A DNA stretch of 64,000 nt from an uncultured delta proteobacterium (GCA_963842085.1 CAWJET010000001.1:1888001-1952000); one strand, 5' to 3'; shown: positions 1 through 10,105, counted from the first letter of the stretch. Translations and numbers: made by a program. Notes: generated from the letters alone by a model not told the origin.

Positions 1-863
1 TTTCGGCGCGCGCGGTGCTGACTGCGGTGGCGCTTTGCGTGCCGATTATTTTCGCCATCTGTCTGGGCCTGAGCGGGCAAGTCGCGCTCAGCGCGTCGCT
101 GGCAGTGTTACTCACACTGATCTGTTTTTTCGCGACGGCGATCGCCGGCTACCTGACCGGAATAGTCGGCGCGTCGAACAATCCGGTGTCGGGTGTCACC
201 GTGATCGTATTACTCGCGGTGGCGCTGTTTCTGAAATTCGCCGGAGTGTCGCAGAGCGCCGGGCCGCACCTGGCGATTCTTGCCGGCGCGATCGTATGCA
301 CGGCGGCCGCAATGGCGGGTGATTCCCTGCACGATCTCGCGACCGGCTTTCACGTTGGCGCGACGCCGCGCTCGCTCGAAATAGGAGTGCTGGTCGGCGC
401 GATCGCTTCATCATTCGTGATGGCGCCGATTCTGAATTTGCTGATCGCCGGCTACGGAATCGCAGGCACTGCGACCGCGCGCGCGGGTGCACTGGCGGCG
501 CCACAAGCGTTTCTGATGGCGAAAGTGACGCAGGGAGTTTTCCACGGCGGACTACCGCTCGGGACAATAGCGACCGGCGCGGCGCTCGCGGCGCTTCTCG
601 GATTCAGCGATCGCTACCTGGAACGGATCGGATCGAAGTGGCGCACGCCGATCATGCCGGCCGCGATCGGTCTCTATCTCCCGTTGGGACTCAGCGTAAC
701 CATCTTCATCGGCGCGCTGGCGCACTCCCTCTTGGGACCCGAGGATGAGGCAGAGAACGGACCCGGGATTCTGCTCGCGGCCGGTCTGGTGGCAGGCGAA
801 GCGCTGATGGGAGTTGCGAGCGGCGCGATAGTCACGGCGGGAATCCGGCTGCCGCTTTTTTGA
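1..863 (+). CDS. OPT-family oligopeptide transporter, C-terminal part (5' end outside window)
   Basis: Multi-TM ORF 15..863 with OPT motifs GIVGASNNPVSG, GDSLHDLATG, LAAPQAFLM, GLVAGEALMG. Confidence 0.85.
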   Translation, partial: SARAVLTAVALCVPIIFAICLGLSGQVALSASLAVLLTLICFFATAIAGYLTGIVGASNNPVSGVTVIVLLAVALFLKFAGVSQSAGPHLAILAGAIVCTAAAMAGDSLHDLATGFHVGATPRSLEIGVLVGAIASSFVMAPILNLLIAGYGIAGTATARAGALAAPQAFLMAKVTQGVFHGGLPLGTIATGAALAALLGFSDRYLERIGSKWRTPIMPAAIGLYLPLGLSVTIFIGALAHSLLGPEDEAENGPGILLAAGLVAGEALMGVASGAIVTAGIRLPLF

Positions 864-976
864 CAGGATATTTTGCATGCGACCGATCCTCATCTCTGTC
901 CGGGACATCACCTGGATTTGCGGGGTTGCATTGATTTTGTTCGCCGCACCGGTGCGAGCGCAGGCGGGTCACTTCT

Positions 977-1498
977 ATGACGGTTACCCAGACGAAGGTG
1001 ATTCGGTTCATACCGCCGATCCCGACCGGCGACGTGCGCGAAGGTTCGTGCTGGACTGAATCGATCTCCGTTACGCGGGTTGGTGCTTGGCGGTGCATGG
1101 TCGGTAATGCGATCAGCGATCCGTGTTTCACGATACCCGGCAATCGTACGCAGCTCGTATGCGACGCCAATCCCGCCCTCAAAACCGACGGCTTTGTTTT
1201 GATGCTCACCAAGCCGTTGCCCAGGTCATCGCTTCCCAATCGGAAGCCGGAACCCTGGCTCTTTCGTCTGGCTGACAATTCGATCTGCGAGGCGATGACC
1301 GGGACGCTGTCGCCCGTGAACGGCGAGCCTGCGCGATGGGCTTGCGCGGTACACATCCGCGATCAGGTCAGACCGTCGGGACTGGTGACGGCGCTAATGC
1401 CGGGAAAAATCTGGACGGCCGACAAATTCCCGGAAAGCGCGATCGGCAAGCAAGGCGTCGAGCCGCAAAGAGTGCCGGTGAAGACGGTCTGGGAGTGA
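977..1498 (+). CDS. Cys-rich, probably exported hypothetical protein; likely frameshifted from a signal peptide starting at 877
   Basis: 173-aa ORF with six Cys (GSCW..AWRC..DPCF..VC..IC..WAC); signal-peptide-like sequence lies upstream in another frame. Confidence 0.65.
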   Translation: MTVTQTKVIRFIPPIPTGDVREGSCWTESISVTRVGAWRCMVGNAISDPCFTIPGNRTQLVCDANPALKTDGFVLMLTKPLPRSSLPNRKPEPWLFRLADNSICEAMTGTLSPVNGEPARWACAVHIRDQVRPSGLVTALMPGKIWTADKFPESAIGKQGVEPQRVPVKTVWE

Positions 1499-1506
1499 GC
1501 GCGCCG

Positions 1507-2007
1507 CTACTTGCGCATCGTGCGCAATTGCCGATGGGTCAGCATCCAACGCAGCTCGCCGCCGCCGCGTTCGAAGCGCGCAGGCAGATCAATCGCAATA
1601 CATCCGCCCGTCTTCAACTTCAGATGAACGGCGTCGCTCGCGCCGGTCAGCAGAATCGATGCGACGGCGCTGAGTTGGGGCTCGTGGCCGACGATCATGA
1701 CCTCGCCATGCTTTGAAAATGCGCGCAGTGCCGCCACCGCGTCGGCGGGCGCCACGCCGGTCGCGAGCGCGGGCAGCACTTGCGGCGGCGGAGTATTCTC
1801 GTATGCGGCCGCGACGATCTCGGCGGTTTCCGCGGCGCGCACGAGCGGACTGGTCAATATCACGTCAAACTTCAGGCCCATCGCGCGTAGACCGGCGGCG
1901 GCCCCGCGCATCTTTTCCTTGGAACGTTCGGTCAGCTTGCGCGCCCCGTCGTCGCCGCTGGATGCGGCCTCTTCGGCGGTCGCGTGACGCAGAATATAGA
2001 GCATCAT
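1507..2007 (-). CDS. sixA: Phosphohistidine phosphatase SixA
   Basis: LYILRHA, TSPLVRAAETA, VGHEP motifs; ATG at 2007 overlaps the CHAD stop (ATGA). Confidence 0.9.
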   Translation of the reverse strand: MMLYILRHATAEEAASSGDDGARKLTERSKEKMRGAAAGLRAMGLKFDVILTSPLVRAAETAEIVAAAYENTPPPQVLPALATGVAPADAVAALRAFSKHGEVMIVGHEPQLSAVASILLTGASDAVHLKLKTGGCIAIDLPARFERGGGELRWMLTHRQLRTMRK

Positions 2008-3095
2008 GCAGTTGCTTCCGCAGTGGAATGAGAGTTCATCGAATCGTGATTGGGCTGCGGCTCTCGTTCGATCTCGCCGCCCGCTATATCCGGTTGCTTC
2101 GGTGGAGCGGCTTCGCCGGCATCGGAATCCGGCGCGGCCGGGCTGACGGGCTTCAGCGCTGCCCTGCCGGCGCGGCGAATTTCGTCGAGCGTGTCGCGCA
2201 TCGCATCGGAGCGCTCGAACCGCCGCCACGCTCTCATGCATCGCCGGCGCAATTTGTTTTCGCTGCTGCGCAGCGACTGGATCAGCGCACCGGCTGCGAG
2301 CACGGTCCTGGGCGGCGCGGCCGCCGTCTCCGCATACGACAGCAGCCACGCAGATGCGACCGTGACGTCGTGATAGAGCCCCAGCAATTCCTGGAGTTCT
2401 TCGAGCCGCGCCAGGGTTTTTTTGTGGCGCTTGGCGCCCAGCGGCGCCATCATCTCGAGTTCGTAGCGCAGACGCTTGATCCGAACGCGCAGCTTGTGGA
2501 AAAGCAGCGCGGGAGCGTCGTCCGCAATCTTTTCGCCAAGGCGTGATGCACCGCGTGCAGCCGGCCTGATCAGTTGGGGCGCGACGATGCCGAGCGGGCG
2601 GTCGCTGCCGATTTTCTTGATCGCCGGCCGCGACAGCTTCGCGAGCAGGGTCCGATAGCGCTTCGACGCAAGCAGCTCGTACAGCTTCGCGTGCTCGGCT
2701 TTGCGCCGTTCGTCCAGCGCCGCAACCATCGGTGCGATCGCGTCTCTCAGGTCGGGATCGATTTTGGCCGCACGCGCGGCGATCAGCGCCGGGGTCACGT
2801 CACACTCGCGGACGGCGCCCGCCTGGGTGCTGATCCACCGGATGTCACGCCGGAAGATCCTGAGTTGCGCGGCGTAGATGACGTTCGAAAATAATTCGAT
2901 TGATGCGCGCAGGCGCCGCGTGGCGACGCGAAGTTGATGCAGCGACTCCGCATCGCCCGACTCCGCCGCGCTCTGATGCCGCAACAGCGATTCAGCGCCG
3001 AATGCAAGCGCTTTGCGCGCGGCATCGGCCACGGTTTCTCCGGGCGAAAGCGTCACCCTGCGCGGCGGCGCATCGGAGCGCGGGGCATCCATCAC
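2004..3095 (-). CDS. CHAD-domain polyphosphate-binding protein
   Basis: Two CHAD half-motifs: LHQLRVATRRLR...GAVRECDV and FHKLRVRIKRLRY...LQELLGLYHD. Confidence 0.9.
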   Translation of the reverse strand: MMDAPRSDAPPRRVTLSPGETVADAARKALAFGAESLLRHQSAAESGDAESLHQLRVATRRLRASIELFSNVIYAAQLRIFRRDIRWISTQAGAVRECDVTPALIAARAAKIDPDLRDAIAPMVAALDERRKAEHAKLYELLASKRYRTLLAKLSRPAIKKIGSDRPLGIVAPQLIRPAARGASRLGEKIADDAPALLFHKLRVRIKRLRYELEMMAPLGAKRHKKTLARLEELQELLGLYHDVTVASAWLLSYAETAAAPPRTVLAAGALIQSLRSSENKLRRRCMRAWRRFERSDAMRDTLDEIRRAGRAALKPVSPAAPDSDAGEAAPPKQPDIAGGEIEREPQPNHDSMNSHSTAEATA

Positions 3096-3100
3096 TTGTG

Positions 3101-3859
3101 CTATTCCTTGCGCGTCGATGCGCCGTGATCGGTCGAATCGGGACGCGGCTTGCCGTTGGCCCGCGACAAATATTCGGCGATGTGTTTTCTAAGCTCGCCC
3201 TGGAGCTCCACGACCGGAAGGCGCGCATCGACGGAGATGAAGCCGAACTCGCCGGACAAGCGCCGGTATTCGTCTATCAGGCGGCTCTGGTAGCGCTCGA
3301 ATGAATCGAACAGGTCGGTGCCGAGCGCCAGATGCATCCCGGATTCCCAGTAGTCCATCCCCTTGCCCATGATGACGCGGGGAATCAGAGATTCGACGTC
3401 GATGTCGAGGTAGAGCACGAGGTCGGGCACCAGCGCCATCCCAAACACCTCGCGCGTCCATCGCGGGTCGGCGCCCATCACCGAGTTGCGCGCGAACGCG
3501 GTGTACATGTAGCGATCGGCGATCACGATAAAGCCCGCCTGCAACGCCGGCAGGATTTCGTGCTCGAGCCGATCAGCAAAATCCGCGGCGTAGAGCAGCG
3601 AGAAGGTGGTGACCGTTAGCTGATGCCCCGCCTTGGCCTCGTTGATGGTCTCGGAGAGCAGTGGCGAGCGCGTCCATCCGGTGTTGCTGACGGCGTAGCC
3701 TTCGAGTTCGAGCCACGGGCGGAGCAGCTCGATCTGCGCGGAGCGGCCGACGCCGTCGGTTCCTTCGATCGCGATCAAGTGGCCAGGCAGCCGTTTTTTC
3801 GTGAGGTACGGCAGGCCGTGCCCGTACCAGGTCTTAGCGCGGCTGGGATGTGACGCCAT
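3101..3859 (-). CDS. Thymidylate kinase-like protein 2 (variant P-loop GTDGVGRS)
   Basis: IEGTDGVGRS, FSLLYAADFADR, ADRYMYTAFAR; start at MASHPS (3859). Confidence 0.85.
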   Translation of the reverse strand: MASHPSRAKTWYGHGLPYLTKKRLPGHLIAIEGTDGVGRSAQIELLRPWLELEGYAVSNTGWTRSPLLSETINEAKAGHQLTVTTFSLLYAADFADRLEHEILPALQAGFIVIADRYMYTAFARNSVMGADPRWTREVFGMALVPDLVLYLDIDVESLIPRVIMGKGMDYWESGMHLALGTDLFDSFERYQSRLIDEYRRLSGEFGFISVDARLPVVELQGELRKHIAEYLSRANGKPRPDSTDHGASTRKE

Positions 3860-4700
3860 TTTTTCCGTTTGCTCGATTAAGATCGTAGTCGCGAAGAATT
3901 TCCTGGACCATCGTGCGTACGACTCGCTGTTGATTGGGGATTTCGGCGGTCGCGTCGATCGGACGCATCCCGAACTCAAGCGTCAGTTGATCGTAAATTT
4001 CGAGCACGCGGCTCTGAAACATGCGGAAGCTTTCGACCGGATCGGCCGAGAGACCGACGTCCATCCCGGCTTCGTGGTACTTGAGCTTGGCGCGTCCCGA
4101 CAGCAGGCGCTCGAGCGAGATGTCGATCGGCACGCGAAAGTAGAGCGTCAAGTCGGGCCGCAGCGCGGGGCTGTAAACCGAGCGGACCCATTCGGGATGC
4201 ACGCCGCGGGCGACGTCGCGCGCAAATGCCGTGTAGACGTAGCGATCGGCGAGCACGATCATGCCGGCCTTCAGCGGCGGCAGAATCTGGTAAGTCAGGC
4301 GATCGGCGAAATCGACGGCGTGCAACAGCGAGAAGGTGGTCGGCGTCAGCAGATTTTTTTTCTTGCCGCGTTGCATCGAACGGCGTACCAGCCGCGACGA
4401 ATTCCACTCCGTGAAATGCACCGGGTAGCCGCGCGACCGTAGCCATCGCTCGAGCAGCAGCAGTTGCGTCGATTTGCCCGACCCGTCGATTCCCTCGACG
4501 CAGATCAGCCGGCCGCGATAGGGATGCGGCGTTTCGAGCAGGGTCTTCGGCGCACTCGTGACGGCGGACTTGGCGCTGGTCGCGGACGGAGTAACGTGAC
4601 CGTTGGGCGAAGGAACGGCGGCAGGCAGCCTTACCGCTGCAACACCACCTGGCGATCCAGCAGTCTCGATAACAGGTCGGTCCTTCTCTCGCATGTCCAT
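3834..4700 (-). CDS. Thymidylate kinase-like protein 1 (canonical P-loop GIDGSGKS)
   Basis: VEGIDGSGKSTQ, FTEWNSS, ADRYVYTAFARD; true start may be downstream of 4700 because 4700 overlaps ppx by 70 nt. Confidence 0.85.
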   Translation of the reverse strand: MDMREKDRPVIETAGSPGGVAAVRLPAAVPSPNGHVTPSATSAKSAVTSAPKTLLETPHPYRGRLICVEGIDGSGKSTQLLLLERWLRSRGYPVHFTEWNSSRLVRRSMQRGKKKNLLTPTTFSLLHAVDFADRLTYQILPPLKAGMIVLADRYVYTAFARDVARGVHPEWVRSVYSPALRPDLTLYFRVPIDISLERLLSGRAKLKYHEAGMDVGLSADPVESFRMFQSRVLEIYDQLTLEFGMRPIDATAEIPNQQRVVRTMVQEILRDYDLNRANGKNGVTSQPR

Positions 4701-6145
4701 AGCTCGAGGTCGGCCTCCTCGCGCTTCGAATCGACTCCGACGATTACACGGCCCGGTGAATACCTGACCTCGATATTCTTAACCACACCGAAGTGGGTTC
4801 GATCCAGCGCGTCGGCAACACGCAGAATCGCGGCGAGGCCCCTTATCACACGGCGCTTGGCGGGGCTGAGCGATTTCAAATCCGGCGAATCGAGCTTGGG
4901 GGCCTGCTTGCGATGCCCGCGAGCCGCCTGGGCGATGACCTCGATTTCGTCAGTGTCGAAGCCGAACAGCTCCGCATTCTTAATCAGGTAGTAAGAATGA
5001 CGATTGTGCCGGTCATGATCAATCGCGTGGCCAATATCGTGCAGTAAGGCCCCGAATTCAAGGAGTTCTCGCGAGGACTTGGGCAGGCCCAGAACCGGCG
5101 CCGTCGCGTCGAACAGCTTGAGCGCCAGCCGCGCGACCTGCTTGCCGTGCTCGTTGCTGCCGGCGAATCGCGCCGCCAGGGCGCCGACCGAGCGGCGGCG
5201 CGCGTCGGCCGCCGAGCGCGAGTCGAGCTTGCGCGCGAGACCCAGCAGCACGCCTTCGCGCAGCGCCCAGGTGCATGCGGCCAGTTCCGGCGCGCCGGAT
5301 TTCTTCAGAATAAAATTCACCAGCGTGGCCGCGGCCGGCATCAGGTCGACGCGCTTCGCGTCCATCCCGGGAAGATCGACGCGCAGCGCCGCGTTGGCCT
5401 CGACCAGGTCGCGCTTCAACTCGGCAATCTCACCGGCCGAGGCGCTCGCGCCATGCAGGCGGCCCAGTTCCTCGCCGCGCGCGGCTCGCGCCATCGCGAC
5501 CATCGTGTTGATCGTGCCCGAGGTCCCGATCGCGCGGACCACCCCCGCGCGCCGCGCCTTGCGCATCAGCGGCCCAATCGCGCGCTCGAGATGCGCCTCG
5601 AGCTTGCTCAACTGCGTGCGCGTCGGCGGGTCGTCGAGCAGAAATCTCTCTGCCAGCCGCGCCGCGCCGAGCTTCACGCTGCGCATCCACAGCGGCTTGC
5701 CGTCGCGCACCAGCACGAGTTCCACGCTGCCGCCGCCCACGTCGACGAGCAAATGAGGTCCGCCGTCGAGACCCAGCGCGTGACGCGCAGCCTGAAAGAT
5801 CAGCCGCGCCTCGTCGAGTCCCGAGATCACCTCAACCGTCAGGCCGGTCTCGCGCTTGATGCGCCGAATGAACTCCGTACGGTTGCGCGCTTCGCGCACC
5901 GCGCTGGTCGCCACCGCGCGCAGCCGATCCACTCGGCGCACCCGCAGCAGTTTCTTGAAATTCACCAGCGCGCGCACCGCGAGGTCCATCGATTCCGGCG
6001 TGAGCCGTCCCGTCGTGAACGATCGCCGGCCCAGCCGCACCATTTCCTTGACGCGATCGACGACTTCGAGATGACCGTCGCGGCTCACGTCCGCCACGAT
6101 CATGTGGACGGAGTTGGATCCGACATCGATGGCTCCCAGCCGCAT
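4631..6145 (-). CDS. ppx: Ppx/GppA exopolyphosphatase with C-terminal HD domain
   Basis: IDVGSNSVH, ATSAVREA, DVGGGSVE, LREG, LLHDIG...ADALD; start at MRLGAID. Confidence 0.92.
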   Translation of the reverse strand: MRLGAIDVGSNSVHMIVADVSRDGHLEVVDRVKEMVRLGRRSFTTGRLTPESMDLAVRALVNFKKLLRVRRVDRLRAVATSAVREARNRTEFIRRIKRETGLTVEVISGLDEARLIFQAARHALGLDGGPHLLVDVGGGSVELVLVRDGKPLWMRSVKLGAARLAERFLLDDPPTRTQLSKLEAHLERAIGPLMRKARRAGVVRAIGTSGTINTMVAMARAARGEELGRLHGASASAGEIAELKRDLVEANAALRVDLPGMDAKRVDLMPAAATLVNFILKKSGAPELAACTWALREGVLLGLARKLDSRSAADARRRSVGALAARFAGSNEHGKQVARLALKLFDATAPVLGLPKSSRELLEFGALLHDIGHAIDHDRHNRHSYYLIKNAELFGFDTDEIEVIAQAARGHRKQAPKLDSPDLKSLSPAKRRVIRGLAAILRVADALDRTHFGVVKNIEVRYSPGRVIVGVDSKREEADLELWTCERRTDLLSRLLDRQVVLQR

Positions 6146-6238
6146 GAATAGAAGGTAACGCCCCGGGCGCTCGATGTCATCCATATTGCCCCGCATCCGC
6201 ACCGGCGGACCGAAAATCCGCGCACTCAACCTGCGACG

Positions 6239-6283
6239 ATTAGAAGCGACGCGCGTTACCGTGCGATGAACGCCGGATGTCGA
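6239..6283 (-). promoter_or_regulatory. Putative Pho-box-like promoter of the ppx operon
   Basis: Minus strand TCGACAT-N4-CGTTCAT-N4-CGGTAAC-N10-TCTAAT (11-bp period). Confidence 0.55.
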
Positions 6284-6354
6284 ATTTGTTTTCGCGGTAT
6301 CATCGCAAATCCATCGAGTCTAATCTGAACTGAACCCTGCACGGACCTATTTCC

Positions 6355-7956
6355 TTGGCAGTCGCAGCCTCATCCCCGATTGGCACCGAGTATCCCGACT
6401 ACGGGACCTCCAGCCACAAATGGCTCATCGCCCTGGCCGTGATGCTCGGCACGACGCTTGAGGTCCTGGACACGTCGATCGTCAACGTCGCGCTGCCGCA
6501 TATGCAGGGCAGCTTTTCCGCGAGCGTCGACGAAATCGCCTGGGTGCTCACCAGTTACCTGGTCGCCAACGGCATCATGATTCCAATGACGGGATGGATC
6601 TCGTCGCGCTTCGGCCGCAAGCGCTACTTCATGACCTCAGTCGCCGTGTTCGTCGCCGCCTCGGGCCTGTGCGGCGCCGCGCGATCGCTCGATCAGATGG
6701 TCGTCTTTCGATTGATTCAGGGCGCGGCGGGCGCTGCGATGGTCCCGTCGTCGCAGGCGATCCTGATGGAGACCTTCCCGCCCAACGAACAGCAGCTCGC
6801 GATGGCGACGTGGGGGATGGGCCTGATGGTCGCGCCGATCATGGGTCCGACGCTCGGCGGATGGATCACCGACAATTGGAACTGGCGCTGGAATTTTTAC
6901 ATCAACCTGCCGATCGGCGCCGCTGCCTTCCTGATGGTCTGGACCTTCGTTCACGACCCCGCGTACCTGCGCACCCGCGCCAAGGGCGGCAAGACCGACT
7001 ACACCGGCATCATCCTGCTCGTCATCGGGCTCGGCCTGGCGCAGCTCGTCCTCGATCGCGGCCAGCGCGCCGACTGGTTCAGTTCGCCGTGGGTCGTTTA
7101 CTGCACGATAATTTCCACGCTCTGCATCGTCGGCCTCGCGATCAACGAACTGCGCACGCCGGAACCGATCCTCGATCTGTCAATCCTCGGGATTCCTGTA
7201 TTCACGATGTCGGTGATGCTGATGGTGGCGATGAGTTTCGCCCTGTTCGGCACCGGACTGCTGAATCCTATTTTCCTGCAGGAGTTGATGGGTTACAGCG
7301 CGTGGAAGGCCGGCCTGGTGCTCGCGCCGCGAGGACTCGGCACCATGGGGGCGATGCTGATCGTCGGACAGCTCGGGCGCTACCGCTACGACACGCGTCC
7401 GCTGATCGGCGTCGGGTTCGTCATCATGGCATTCGGGCTGTGGACGATGGCCGGATGGAATACTCAGGTCAGCATGTGGGCGGTGACGTGGCCGAGCCTC
7501 GTTATGGGCGTCGGGATGGGCATGATCTTCCCCACGCTGTCCGCCACCACGCTGGCATGCGTCAGCCGCGAGCGCGTCGGCTACGCCGCAAGCCTCTACA
7601 ATATGATGCGCAACACCGGCGCCGCGATCGGCATCTCGTACATGACGACCGTGCTCGTGAATCACGAGCAGACGCATCAGTCGTACCTGGTCGAGCATTT
7701 CACCGCCTTCGACGCATGGAAGATGAGCGGCGCTGCGCGGCTCACTCCCGGCGCGCGCAGCTTCGACTACCTGCCGCAAATACTCAGCGGCCAGAAGCAG
7801 GGACTCGGGATGGTGTATGGGATGATTCAGCGTCAGTCGATGATGCTGTCGTTCAACGACATCTACCGCACACTGGCTATTGTAATGATGATTCTGATTC
7901 CGACCTTTCTGCTCCTGCGCCGCGCGCAACCCACCACCGGCGTGGCCGCCCACTAA
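6355..7956 (+). CDS. DHA2-family (EmrB/QacA) MFS efflux permease
   Basis: LDTSIVNVALP, WVLTSYLVA, GPTLGGWIT, WRWNFYINLPIG; about 14 TM. Confidence 0.92.
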   Translation: MAVAASSPIGTEYPDYGTSSHKWLIALAVMLGTTLEVLDTSIVNVALPHMQGSFSASVDEIAWVLTSYLVANGIMIPMTGWISSRFGRKRYFMTSVAVFVAASGLCGAARSLDQMVVFRLIQGAAGAAMVPSSQAILMETFPPNEQQLAMATWGMGLMVAPIMGPTLGGWITDNWNWRWNFYINLPIGAAAFLMVWTFVHDPAYLRTRAKGGKTDYTGIILLVIGLGLAQLVLDRGQRADWFSSPWVVYCTIISTLCIVGLAINELRTPEPILDLSILGIPVFTMSVMLMVAMSFALFGTGLLNPIFLQELMGYSAWKAGLVLAPRGLGTMGAMLIVGQLGRYRYDTRPLIGVGFVIMAFGLWTMAGWNTQVSMWAVTWPSLVMGVGMGMIFPTLSATTLACVSRERVGYAASLYNMMRNTGAAIGISYMTTVLVNHEQTHQSYLVEHFTAFDAWKMSGAARLTPGARSFDYLPQILSGQKQGLGMVYGMIQRQSMMLSFNDIYRTLAIVMMILIPTFLLLRRAQPTTGVAAH

Positions 7957-7965
7957 CCTGTCTCG

Positions 7966-8496
7966 CTAATCTTTCATTTGCGCGAGTGCTCGCTCGAAGG
8001 CCTCGAGCGAGCGGCGATCGAACAGCACGAATTCCACCCGCTCCAGCGTCGTCGCACCGCCGAGATGCGCTCGCACTTCCCCGAGCATCACCTCGGCGCA
8101 TCGCTCGATCGGAAAACCCGCGATGCCGGTGCCGATCGCCGGAAATGCGATCGTCTTGAGCGAGTTCTCGTCGGCACGCCTCAGCGAGTTACGCGTCGCC
8201 GCACGTAGATTTGTCTCCGACGTCGATTCTCCCAGCCGCATGCTCGCTGCGTGAATTACATGCCGCGCGCGCAGCCGTCCCGCCCCCGTAATCGCCGCCT
8301 CGCCGAGCGCGATCGGCCCAATGCGGTCGCACTCGCGCTGAATCGCCGGTCCGCCCTTGACGCGAATCGCGCCCGCGACACCGCCGCCCAGCATCAGATC
8401 GTTGTTCGCAGCATTCACGATCGCGTCCACCTCCGCGTCCGTGAGGTCGCCCTGGCGGAGTTCGATCTTCGCGCGCCAATCTCTACTCATCGCCAT
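7966..8496 (-). CDS. Macro domain protein (YmdB/MacroD-like ADP-ribose hydrolase)
   Basis: GDLT, AIVNAAN, GGGVAGAI, AFPAIGTGIAGFP. Confidence 0.9.
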   Translation of the reverse strand: MAMSRDWRAKIELRQGDLTDAEVDAIVNAANNDLMLGGGVAGAIRVKGGPAIQRECDRIGPIALGEAAITGAGRLRARHVIHAASMRLGESTSETNLRAATRNSLRRADENSLKTIAFPAIGTGIAGFPIERCAEVMLGEVRAHLGGATTLERVEFVLFDRRSLEAFERALAQMKD

Positions 8497-8533
8497 GTTA
8501 TTATCGCGCCAATCGGTGATAATCCGAAGCGGC

Positions 8534-10105
8534 GTGTTCACGGTGTGGACGAGGAAGACAATTGCCCCGCTGCGATTGGTCGCGCTGATCGCTGCGCTCG
8601 CGCTCGCGGGATGCGGCCCCGATCGCACCGCTCGTTCCCCCGCGACGATTCAGGTCGATATCGAAATCACGCCAACCTCGACTGACCCGCGCTTTGCGAC
8701 CGACGCGACCTCATCGCGGATCAACGAACTCATTTTCGATTCGCTGGTGAAGACCGACCGCGATGGTCAATTTGTTGGCCACCTTGCTGACAGCATCGAG
8801 CGTCCTTCGGCTACGGAAATTGTTTTCCATCTGAAGCATGGGGTGCGCTTCAGCGACGGCCGCGAACTGACCGCACGCGACGTGTTATTCACTTACGATT
8901 CGATTCTCGCGCCCGAGTCGATGTCGCCAAAGCGGGCCAGCCTCGAGGAGTTGACCTCAATCGTCGCCCCCGACGACTACACCGTCGTCATGACCACCGC
9001 GCATCCATACGCCCCCGCGCTCGAGATGGCGACGGAGGGTATCGTACCCAGTGGCACTCCGCTGCCCTCGAAAGGAAGCGCAGCCGCTCCCGTCGGCAGC
9101 GGTCCCTTTCATATGGTAGCTTACGCGCGCGACGAGGCCGCGCGGCTCGAGCGCAATCCGTACTACCCGCATCCGCCGGGCGCAGCACAATCGATCCTGT
9201 TCAAGATAGTTCCCGACCCTACGGTGCGCGCGCTCGAACTGGCAGAGGGAGTCTGCGATTTCTCGGGGAACAATATCGAGAACGATGTCTTGCCGTGGCT
9301 GGCAAGGCACCCTTTTCTGGAAGTCAGCAACACTCCGGGTACTACTTATAGGTACCTGTCTTTCAACTTTCGTGATCCGCGGCTGCGAGACTTACGCGTG
9401 CGACGCGGAATTGCCTATGCGATCGACCGCAATACTATAGTCAGTACCATCCTTCGTGGTACTGCTCGAGTAGCTACTGGTATGCTCTCACCCGAGAACT
9501 GGGCATACGACGGCAACGTAACTAGCTATACCTACGATCCGGAGAAGGCGCGTCAGTTGCTCGATCAAGCCGGCTACAGGGTCGGAAGCAACGGCATGCG
9601 CGGCCTCAAATTTGAATATAAGACGACGCCGGAAGGCGCTCGCATGGGCGAAGTGTTTCAGGCGATGCTTCAGCGAGTGGGTATCGAGCTGACTATTCGG
9701 ACTCTCGACTTCGCCACCTATTATGCTGACATTCAGGGCGGAAGTTTCGACCTGACTTCGCTCCAGTGGGTAGGTATCAACGACCCCAATAGCTACTACA
9801 TGGTATTCGACTCGAAGAAGACACCTCCGCACGGAGAAAATCGAGGTTACTATTCCAGCCCCGCGATGGATCGTTTGGTCGAAGCAGGAATGCGAACCGT
9901 CGCTCCGGAAGAACGAAAAAAAATATATGCACAGGTGCAGCGGCTCGCTGCCGCGGACCTGCCGTATGTTTCGCTGTGGTGGGTCGACAATGTGGCTGTG
10001 ATGAATCGGCGGCTCGTCGGTTTCAACGCGTATCCCAATGGCAGCTTCCGCTCGCTCGCGACTCTGACGCTGAGTACTCCCGGCGGCGGAGAGCCGTCGG
10101 ATTGA
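8534..10105 (+). CDS. Peptide/nickel ABC transporter substrate-binding lipoprotein (family 5)
   Basis: Lipobox LAGC, FHLKHGVRFSDG, GSGPF, VRRGIAYAIDR; GTG start at 8534 or 8543 inferred. Confidence 0.88.
   Translation: MFTVWTRKTIAPLRLVALIAALALAGCGPDRTARSPATIQVDIEITPTSTDPRFATDATSSRINELIFDSLVKTDRDGQFVGHLADSIERPSATEIVFHLKHGVRFSDGRELTARDVLFTYDSILAPESMSPKRASLEELTSIVAPDDYTVVMTTAHPYAPALEMATEGIVPSGTPLPSKGSAAAPVGSGPFHMVAYARDEAARLERNPYYPHPPGAAQSILFKIVPDPTVRALELAEGVCDFSGNNIENDVLPWLARHPFLEVSNTPGTTYRYLSFNFRDPRLRDLRVRRGIAYAIDRNTIVSTILRGTARVATGMLSPENWAYDGNVTSYTYDPEKARQLLDQAGYRVGSNGMRGLKFEYKTTPEGARMGEVFQAMLQRVGIELTIRTLDFATYYADIQGGSFDLTSLQWVGINDPNSYYMVFDSKKTPPHGENRGYYSSPAMDRLVEAGMRTVAPEERKKIYAQVQRLAAADLPYVSLWWVDNVAVMNRRLVGFNAYPNGSFRSLATLTLSTPGGGEPSD

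Follow-up and report, generated by a model that had tools for sequence, protein, structure and literature searches.

The kinase pair and its operon

The DNA considered here (hereafter the window) is a 64,000-nucleotide stretch of the genome of an uncultured delta proteobacterium, a soil bacterium (C1:1888001-1952000; GCA_963842085.1, CAWJET010000001.1). It carries an operon of five genes which, all on the minus strand, fill positions 6145..1507 in the order ppx, thymidylate kinase (TMK)-like copy 1, TMK-like copy 2, CHAD and sixA. The operon is discussed as a candidate bacterial member of a recently described family of polyphosphate kinases (PPKs), PPK3. An earlier note, made from the sequence alone, had described the five minus-strand genes as tightly coupled, and the junctions confirm this; the Pfam and NCBIfam matches of the products confirm the gene names. 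There is a 70-nucleotide overlap between ppx and copy 1, a 26-nucleotide overlap between copy 1 and copy 2, a spacing of 5 nucleotides from copy 2 to the CHAD gene, and a 4-nucleotide ATGA overlap between the CHAD gene and sixA.

Copy 1 (3834..4700, minus strand; 288 residues; cPPK3-like) and copy 2 (3101..3859, minus strand; 252 residues; rPPK3-like) are 44% identical to each other over 218 residues (E 2e-61). Their Walker A motifs read GIDGSGKS and GTDGVGRS, respectively, with Lys replaced by Arg in copy 2. The paralogy, these Walker A readings and the four shared motifs listed in the earlier note are all present. The only Pfam match of either protein at E <= 0.01 is Thymidylate_kin (PF02223; 71.9 bits for copy 1, 66.6 bits for copy 2), and neither matches the PPK2 family (PF03976). 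Against TIGR00041, the equivalog model of dTMP kinase, copy 1 scores 76.1 bits and copy 2 77.3 bits, both under the cut-off of 83.25. The best sequence match of copy 1 in PDB is 2plr/5h70 (E 2.3e-56, against about 1e-13 for canonical Tmks), and copy 2 matches 2plr with E 5.2e-41 (canonical Tmks about 1e-11). The AlphaFold2 (AF2) model of copy 2 has a pLDDT (predicted local distance difference test) value of 91.6, and in Foldseek it matches the st1543 structures best, at a target-normalised template modelling score of about 0.9. In the AF2 model of copy 1 the core blocks exceed a pLDDT of 93, and residues 1-40 lie below 60.

The latter residues belong to a low-complexity N-terminal extension of about 50-60 residues (window 4536-4700, minus strand), which is predicted to be disordered. 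It is absent from the archaeal proteins, and its identity across the genus is 84-94%. No in-frame ATG, GTG or TTG occurs between 4694 and the P-loop codons, so the extension is translated unless the start is non-canonical. A start of copy 1 located 3' of the ppx stop was considered and ruled out, both by this lack of in-frame start codons after 4694 and by the 84-94% identity that genus relatives show over the whole 288 residues.

The characterised system with which the pair can be compared is archaeal. In Sulfolobus acidocaldarius, the genes Saci_2019 and Saci_2020, once annotated as thymidylate kinases, adjoin ppx, and their products make up a heteromeric polyphosphate kinase (Hofmann et al., J Biol Chem 2026, PMC12995831). 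The earlier note had cited this tandem pair, and correctly. According to that paper, SaPPK3 consists of the catalytic cPPK3 (Saci_2019) and the regulatory rPPK3 (Saci_2020), which form an alpha2-beta2 complex in Sulfolobus, and strongly prefers the formation of ATP from ADP and polyphosphate (polyP). Sulfolobus rPPK3 alone is reported to have neither PPK nor dTMP kinase activity, which the authors explain by the loss of the catalytic arginine of the DRX (Walker B) motif. The Sulfolobus PPK3 orthologs are likewise reported to lack dTMP kinase activity, and the dTMP-binding residues of dTMP kinases, including the EP motif, are described as not conserved in PPK3. The paper presents the PPK3 clade as mainly bacterial dTMP kinase paralogs, with PPX, SixA and CHAD as typical neighbours, and states that both subunits are encoded in every predicted PPK3 operon. 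Bacterial dTMP kinase paralogs in PPX/SixA/CHAD operons were thus already predicted there to be PPKs. Among the papers from 2024 on that a search for PPK3 and polyphosphate listed, none characterises a bacterial Tmk-derived PPK3; judged by their titles, several of the others use "PPK3" as an enzyme name in nucleotide-sugar cascades.

Phylogeny

Domain matches shorter than 120 residues were removed before alignment. A FastTree phylogeny was built from 186 rows, one row shorter than 170 residues having been removed. An IQ-TREE phylogeny with a mixture model was built from 59 rows, namely 54 PPK3-type sequences (27 loci chosen for spread) and 5 canonical Tmks. In the FastTree phylogeny, copy 1 falls in a 93-row clade composed of first genes only, with a support of 99. 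A phylogeny against Tmk had been proposed in the earlier note, and in the IQ-TREE phylogeny the 54 PPK3-type rows do stand apart from the 5 canonical Tmks, with a support of 97 in the Shimodaira-Hasegawa-like approximate likelihood-ratio test (SH-aLRT). Copy 2 belongs to a 26-row clade of second genes (hereafter r-type; first genes are c-type) with an SH-aLRT of 99, together with Nitrososphaerales and Sulfolobales-like second genes. This clade includes the gene downstream of an open reading frame (ORF) whose translation matches 2plr exactly.

Loci cluster alike in the c subtree and in the r subtree: the window with L011, a Nitrospirota set, and a Verrucomicrobiota/Nitrososphaerota set. Such matching groupings would be expected of a pair that was inherited and transferred together.

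Conserved residues of the two subunits

The residue census covered 187 aligned rows, comprising 93 c-type, 89 r-type and 5 canonical Tmk sequences. The Walker-A Lys, the W-N-S-S stretch, His127, Arg134, the Asp-Arg of the DRX motif, Arg161 and Arg165 are invariant in the c-type (93/93). Lid Arg203 is Arg in 91 of the 93 rows and Lys in the other 2, and lid Lys207 is kept in 91/93. Copy 1 holds every one of the invariant residues as well as Arg203 and Lys207. The residues of copy 1 that are invariant or nearly so across the c-type are K76, D152-R153 (DRY), R134, R161, R165, R198, R203, K207 and K113-115.

The r-type departs from this pattern at several positions. Arg occupies the Walker-A position in 83/89 rows (67/69 from bacterial and other loci, 10/10 from Nitrososphaerales and 5/9 Sulfolobales-like, plus copy 2 of the window). 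Position 127 is Tyr instead of His in 89/89, Asp, Asn or Ser stands in place of Lys207, most rows have lost Arg203, and the WNSS motif is absent. Where the five canonical sequences compared have E-P-G-G, the c-type has W-N-S-S and copy 2 W-T-R-S. Copy 2 has lost both lid residues, R203 and K207, and has Tyr for the c-type His127; it is clearly r-type.

Other residues are retained more widely. The DRX Arg is kept in 80/89 r-type rows and is Gly in the 9 Sulfolobales-like rows only. Arg161 is kept in 80/89. At Arg134, 54/89 rows, including copy 2, keep the residue, and 35/89 have Gln. The Arg165 position is Arg in all c-type and in 87/89 r-type rows, and Met in copy 2 and its nearest relative, L011. 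This distribution suggests that the family-wide hallmark of the r subunit is the replacement of the Walker-A Lys by Arg together with the loss of basic lid residues, the loss of the DRX Arg being confined to the Sulfolobales-like proteins.

The second genes of two loci, L054:6666-7334 (an uncultured bacterium) and L060:6666-7334 (a Gastranaerophilales metagenome-assembled genome, MAG), combine a Walker-A Lys (GTDGSGKST) with an r-like lid. They may represent an intermediate or a doubly active pair. At the N-terminus of r-type proteins, some 17 residues ahead of the first strand, the stretch aromatic-Tyr-Gly-x-Gly-x-Pro is conserved. It is missing from c-type proteins and may contribute to the subunit interface.

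Distribution, gene neighbourhoods and fusions

A search of representatives at 50% identity returned 335 clusters at E <= 1e-30. When a single genome from each species was scanned with a c-only alignment, there were at least 600 pattern matches and at least 568 confirmed stretches, and neighbourhoods were counted in the best 80 loci of the latter. These 80 loci are bacterial in 69 cases, archaeal in 9 and unassigned in 2. Acidobacteriota (26), Nitrospirota (8), Verrucomicrobiota (8), Chloroflexota (7) and Nitrososphaerota (7) are represented, among others. Twelve further loci, from the phylum of a Nitrososphaerales genome, served as an anchor set, and 9/12 are Sulfolobales-like loci with the order ppx-c-r. 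The c ORF of L092 has the sequence of chain 2plr_A, and copy 1 is 46% identical to it.

Two TMK-like genes are found in 77/80 loci, and in 74/80 they are adjacent, on the same strand and in the order c then r. The pair is missing in three loci: L027 and L083 end at a contig edge, and L062 has no second gene after the first. Within 6 kb, ppx occurs in 52/80 loci, sixA in 36/80, CHAD in 27/80 and all three in 20/80. The exact co-linear order of the window (ppx, c, r, CHAD, sixA) recurs in 1/80. Across the 80 loci, therefore, the c-r core is constant and the accessory genes are shuffled.

The pair is also found fused in nature. P0122 is a c-r fusion, and P0133 and P0143 add Ppx domain III to c-r. 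The P-loops of the fused r halves are degenerate (GSDYSGHY, GAHHAGVT). Among the fusion proteins examined (these three, P0174, P0190, P0191, P0197, P0206 and P0269) there are also combinations of SPX, kinase and DUF2252, of a major facilitator superfamily (MFS) transporter, kinase and DUF2252/APH, and of a polyvalent-protein inorganic pyrophosphatase (InPase) and kinase, one of the last also carrying an ADP-ribosyltransferase domain. Their domain composition hints that the SPX and MFS fusions may be phosphate-sensing proteins and the InPase fusions polyvalent proteins of mobile elements.

Thymidylate kinase, PPK1 and PPK2 in the genome

The earlier note's reading of the pair would have failed if either protein were the only Tmk of the genome. 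This is not the case. A canonical tmk lies at C1:1058182-1058763 (PF02223 165.7 bits, TIGR00041 178.3 bits), directly followed by a holB-like gene (DNA polymerase III delta-prime), and hence neither operon copy is the Tmk of this genome. A canonical tmk was also found in 4/5 other PPK3 genomes checked. In G305, the 7.1-Mb Acidobacteriota MAG that carries locus L025, a search at E <= 1e-5 revealed no canonical tmk and the c/r pair gave the sole PF02223 matches; this could reflect incompleteness or a divergent tmk.

The earlier note had seen no ppk1 or ppk2 in the locus, which holds for the locus and for the whole window. Both genes are present elsewhere in the genome, and both are intact: PPK1 at C1:1445989 (TIGR03705, 740 bits) and PPK2 at C1:2392929 (TIGR03709, 378 bits). 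A second PPK2 gene, on G000 contig 2 at about 1566741-1568697 (L006-L008), is of the class-I type, with pieces matching TIGR03707. It is split by a gene for a 361-residue IS5-family transposase (NF033581, 283 bits), and the distal part of the PPK2 gene extends over two frames.

Most PPK3 genomes are said, in PMC12995831, to lack PPK1 and PPK2, and PPK3 is said to be present in "a few" bacteria. Of 24 further genomes from the genus, 21 gave the c/r pair, 23 gave PPK1 and 21 gave PPK2. These counts include the unpublished G324 and G329; without them the pair is found in 20, PPK1 in 21 and PPK2 in 19 of 22. The pair occurs in 4 of 16 genomes of other families of the class. In 30 other PPK3-bearing genomes, whose completeness was not established, 10 gave PPK1 and 19 gave PPK2; 10 had both, and 11 gave neither. 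The absence of PPK1 and PPK2 from PPK3 hosts is therefore not a rule, and the genus of the window is a three-kinase case.

In many genomes of the genus (among G307-G320; for example, G308, G314 and G320) PPK1 is on the same contig as the PPK3 operon, 11-50 kb away. The distance in the window's genome is about 446 kb, which suggests a rearrangement. One genome from another family of the class has a PPK2 gene immediately upstream of its c/r pair (G332:C128:75249-78071).

The ppx, CHAD and sixA products and the surroundings of the operon

The ppx gene (4631..6145, minus strand) encodes 504 residues from the ATG at 6145, its ORF being open from 6229. The product matches PF02541 (Ppx-GppA) with 213.8 bits and PF21447 (the C-terminal, HD-type domain III) with 103.8 bits. 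It is the sole Ppx/GppA homolog found in the genome, where PF02541 has a single match. The CHAD gene (2004..3095, minus strand; 363 residues) matches PF05235 with 148.5 bits, and its product is likewise the sole one found, with a single genome-wide PF05235 match; it is presumed to bind polyP granules. The sixA gene (1507..2007, minus strand; 166 residues) scores 81.5 bits against TIGR00249 (cut-off 74.5) and also matches PF00300. Its product is a SixA-type member of the histidine-phosphatase superfamily, with an N-terminal RH motif and a GHEP motif further on.

For the SixA product, the earlier note had proposed phospho-His control of the module, for which we found no support. For P-loop kinases, a phospho-His intermediate is not known. 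Moreover, PMC12995831 lists sixA among PPK1-associated genes as well, so its link is with polyP loci generally rather than with PPK3.

The operon is flanked by an oligopeptide transporter (OPT) fragment, a 173-residue ORF, a divergent MFS transporter gene, a Macro-domain gene and a gene for a solute-binding protein. None of these is phosphate-related, and the operon is thus self-contained. The 173-residue ORF (977-1498, plus strand) is convergent with sixA and, at E <= 0.001, has no match in Pfam. ORFs on the plus strand of the operon were rejected as genes, being shadows of a coding strand of 62-69% G+C without family support. A search of window positions 1-9000 against Rfam gave no family at the gathering score. 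In positions 1200-6500, the promoter scan gave 0 promoter-like sites (0.7 expected) and the terminator scan 5 terminator-like sites (4.7 expected), which is not above chance.

Function of the operon

The locus is very likely, as judged from its sequences, a bacterial PPK3 operon (family-3 polyphosphate kinase) in which copy 1 would be the catalytic subunit and copy 2 its partner. It would almost certainly be an uncharacterised bacterial member of the published family and not a new system. The earlier note had reached a similar view, that the two proteins are not dTMP kinases and form a two-subunit polyP kinase, and the sub-cut-off TIGR00041 scores, the 2plr matches and the separate tmk support it.

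By homology, the P-loop of copy 1 would bind ADP or ATP, its basic lid and cleft would bind polyP, and the enzyme would shift the terminal phosphate between them. Like that of the Sulfolobus enzyme, the reaction would probably run as ADP + polyP(n) -> ATP + polyP(n-1). Copy 2 may be a partner of weak or no catalytic activity, which binds copy 1 and stimulates it. That c and r bind each other would fit the natural fusions, the near-universal adjacency of the two genes and a complex prediction discussed below. Ppx, the CHAD protein and the SixA-type phosphatase, co-translated with the pair, could complete a polyP-mobilising module that exists beside PPK1 and PPK2. With PPK1 serving synthesis, Ppx, PPK3 and CHAD might then act as a polyP-mobilising unit at the granule surface. 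The earlier note had spoken of a module of synthesis, binding and degradation. A module of polyP genes is indeed what the locus contains; "synthesis" may overstate its role, since the Sulfolobus enzyme prefers ATP formation and the genome also has PPK1.

Several observations weigh against this interpretation. First, given intact PPK1 and PPK2, a PPK3 is not needed to explain polyP synthesis in this organism. Second, copy 2 reads ADRYMYT and so keeps the DRX Arg; the criterion of an inactive regulator given in PMC12995831 fails here, and the reason stated there for the inactivity of rPPK3 does not apply to copy 2. Third, the monophyly of c has a support of just 37 in the IQ-TREE phylogeny, where the c rows are one side of a branch. 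Fourth, the ppx product scores 274 bits against the exopolyphosphatase-only model TIGR03706, under its cut-off of 307, and may thus have a GppA-like activity. Finally, the predicted complex of c and r lends weak support to the pairing. Its score was 0.44 (best of 3 controls, 0.00), with a contact agreement of at least 87% between runs, a partner pLDDT of at least 81 and alignments built for this analysis; structures of Tmk dimers have been solved, so that the pass may reflect known structures. The mark used is reached by 116/157 solved complexes and 2/215 mismatched pairs, and at a score of 0.60 or under by 18 of the 157 solved complexes and both of the passing mismatches.

It is the second subunit for which another explanation deserves most attention. 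It might be a ligand-binding sensor (for ATP/ADP or polyP) or a weakly active second site, in which case the enzyme would be allosterically controlled by energy charge. The DRX Asp-Arg is kept in 80/80 r-type rows outside the Sulfolobales-like group, copy 2 included, and the frequent retention of Arg161 and Arg134 is consistent with the same idea. The residue at the Walker-A position is a conserved Arg and not a random one, which suggests selection for phosphate binding. The model of copy 2 is a well-folded kinase core, and the second genes of L054 and L060 still have the Walker-A Lys. However, in P-loop NTPases replacement of the Walker-A Lys by Arg usually abolishes phosphoryl transfer. The r-type has also lost lid Arg203, Lys207 and the c-type-invariant WNSS, and the degenerate P-loops of the fused r halves indicate that nucleotide binding by r is not universally required. 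Sulfolobus rPPK3, moreover, is reported to be inactive by itself (PMC12995831). A sensory or weakly active second subunit is possible, and on balance rather doubtful.

A more speculative proposal, which we put forward tentatively and consider unlikely to hold as a whole, is that the r subunit outside Sulfolobales is a conserved phosphate- or nucleotide-sensing pseudokinase which gates c by energy charge or polyP. In bacteria with PPK1, PPK2 and PPK3, the enzyme could then be an emergency ATP regenerator on CHAD-coated granules, together with the sole exopolyphosphatase. If true, three unrelated polyP kinases would divide the work between them.

It is very improbable that one or both kinases are true (d)NMP kinases, for example a second dTMP kinase, which are linked to ppx, CHAD and sixA through a neighbourhood effect only. 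Pfam and NCBIfam do place both proteins in the thymidylate kinase family, their fold is that of dTMP kinase, and close homologs are named "dTMP kinase" in public sources. Both are nevertheless under the TIGR00041 cut-off, which the tmk beside holB passes with 178.3 bits, and where canonical Tmks have E-P-G-G, c has WNSS and r has xRS. A neighbourhood effect would also have to account for the c-r pairing in 74/80 loci and the nearby ppx in 52/80, and the Sulfolobus orthologs are reported to lack dTMP kinase activity (PMC12995831). A module for (p)ppGpp or nucleotide-alarmone metabolism, with Ppx/GppA as pppGpp phosphatase and the kinases acting on guanine nucleotides, is scarcely credible: the ppx product does belong to the bifunctional Ppx/GppA family, with its sub-cut-off TIGR03706 score and a weak match to the GppA model (183.7 against a cut-off of 624), but the operon includes CHAD, a polyP-associated domain, the kinase pair occurs in fusions with Ppx domain III and lone PPK3-like domains in fusions with SPX or pyrophosphatase, which are phosphate and polyP themes, and the characterised homolog uses polyP (PMC12995831).

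If the locus is a PPK3 operon, as we consider very likely, the family has a wider significance. PPK3 has been characterised in one archaeon only, and its breadth here (at least 568 stretches) indicates that it is common in uncultured bacteria. Databases label PPK3 proteins "dTMP kinase", and consequently genome-based inventories of polyP metabolism in bacteria of soil and wastewater miss a kinase and over-count Tmk. The present locus is a full five-gene example in a closed-quality genome, well suited to studying why three polyP kinases are retained in one cell. The present analysis adds the census of r subunits, the co-occurrence with PPK1 and PPK2 and the bacterial breadth of the family. The census, with the Walker-A change from Lys to Arg as the hallmark of the helper subunit, offers a testable correction of the picture based on DRX loss.

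Comparison with known systems

The closest parallel is SaPPK3. Both systems consist of adjacent Tmk-derived paralogs, c then r, beside ppx, with sixA and CHAD nearby and a separate canonical tmk. The c subunit of the window has the P-loop Lys and DRX Arg in common with SaPPK3, as well as the basic residues of the lid, and copy 2 clusters with Sulfolobales-like r proteins. Unlike the Sulfolobales-like r genes, which have Gly and Gln (9/9) at the respective positions, copy 2 keeps the DRX Arg and Arg134, and its lesions are instead the Walker-A change from Lys to Arg and the lost basic residues of the lid. Other differences are the disordered N-terminal extension of about 50 residues in copy 1, the co-linearity of all five genes, and the bacterial host with PPK1 and PPK2.

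The protein st1543 (STK_15430) of Sulfurisphaera tokodaii (PDB 2plr, 4nzy, 4rzx, 5h70) was deposited as "dTMP kinase" and is treated as a cPPK3 homolog in PMC12995831. It is the best sequence match of both kinases of the window and the best fold match of the copy 2 model. Unlike copy 1, it is archaeal, has 213 residues and no N-terminal extension, and was crystallised without an r partner.

Two-domain class II PPK2, such as PA3455 of P. aeruginosa, provides a functional analogy. According to PMC12995831, it combines an active P-loop module with a degenerate paralogous module for oligomerisation and activation, and it is strongly biased to polyP-driven nucleotide phosphorylation. It belongs to another P-loop kinase family, however, and its modules are fused, whereas those of the window are encoded by separate genes.

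Canonical Tmk (TIGR00041) shares with the kinases of the window the fold, the P-loop, the DRX motif and the lid arginine. In contrast to it, they score below the cut-off of the model, lack E-P-G-G, occur as a pair linked to polyP genes, and have the WNSS and basic lid insertions.

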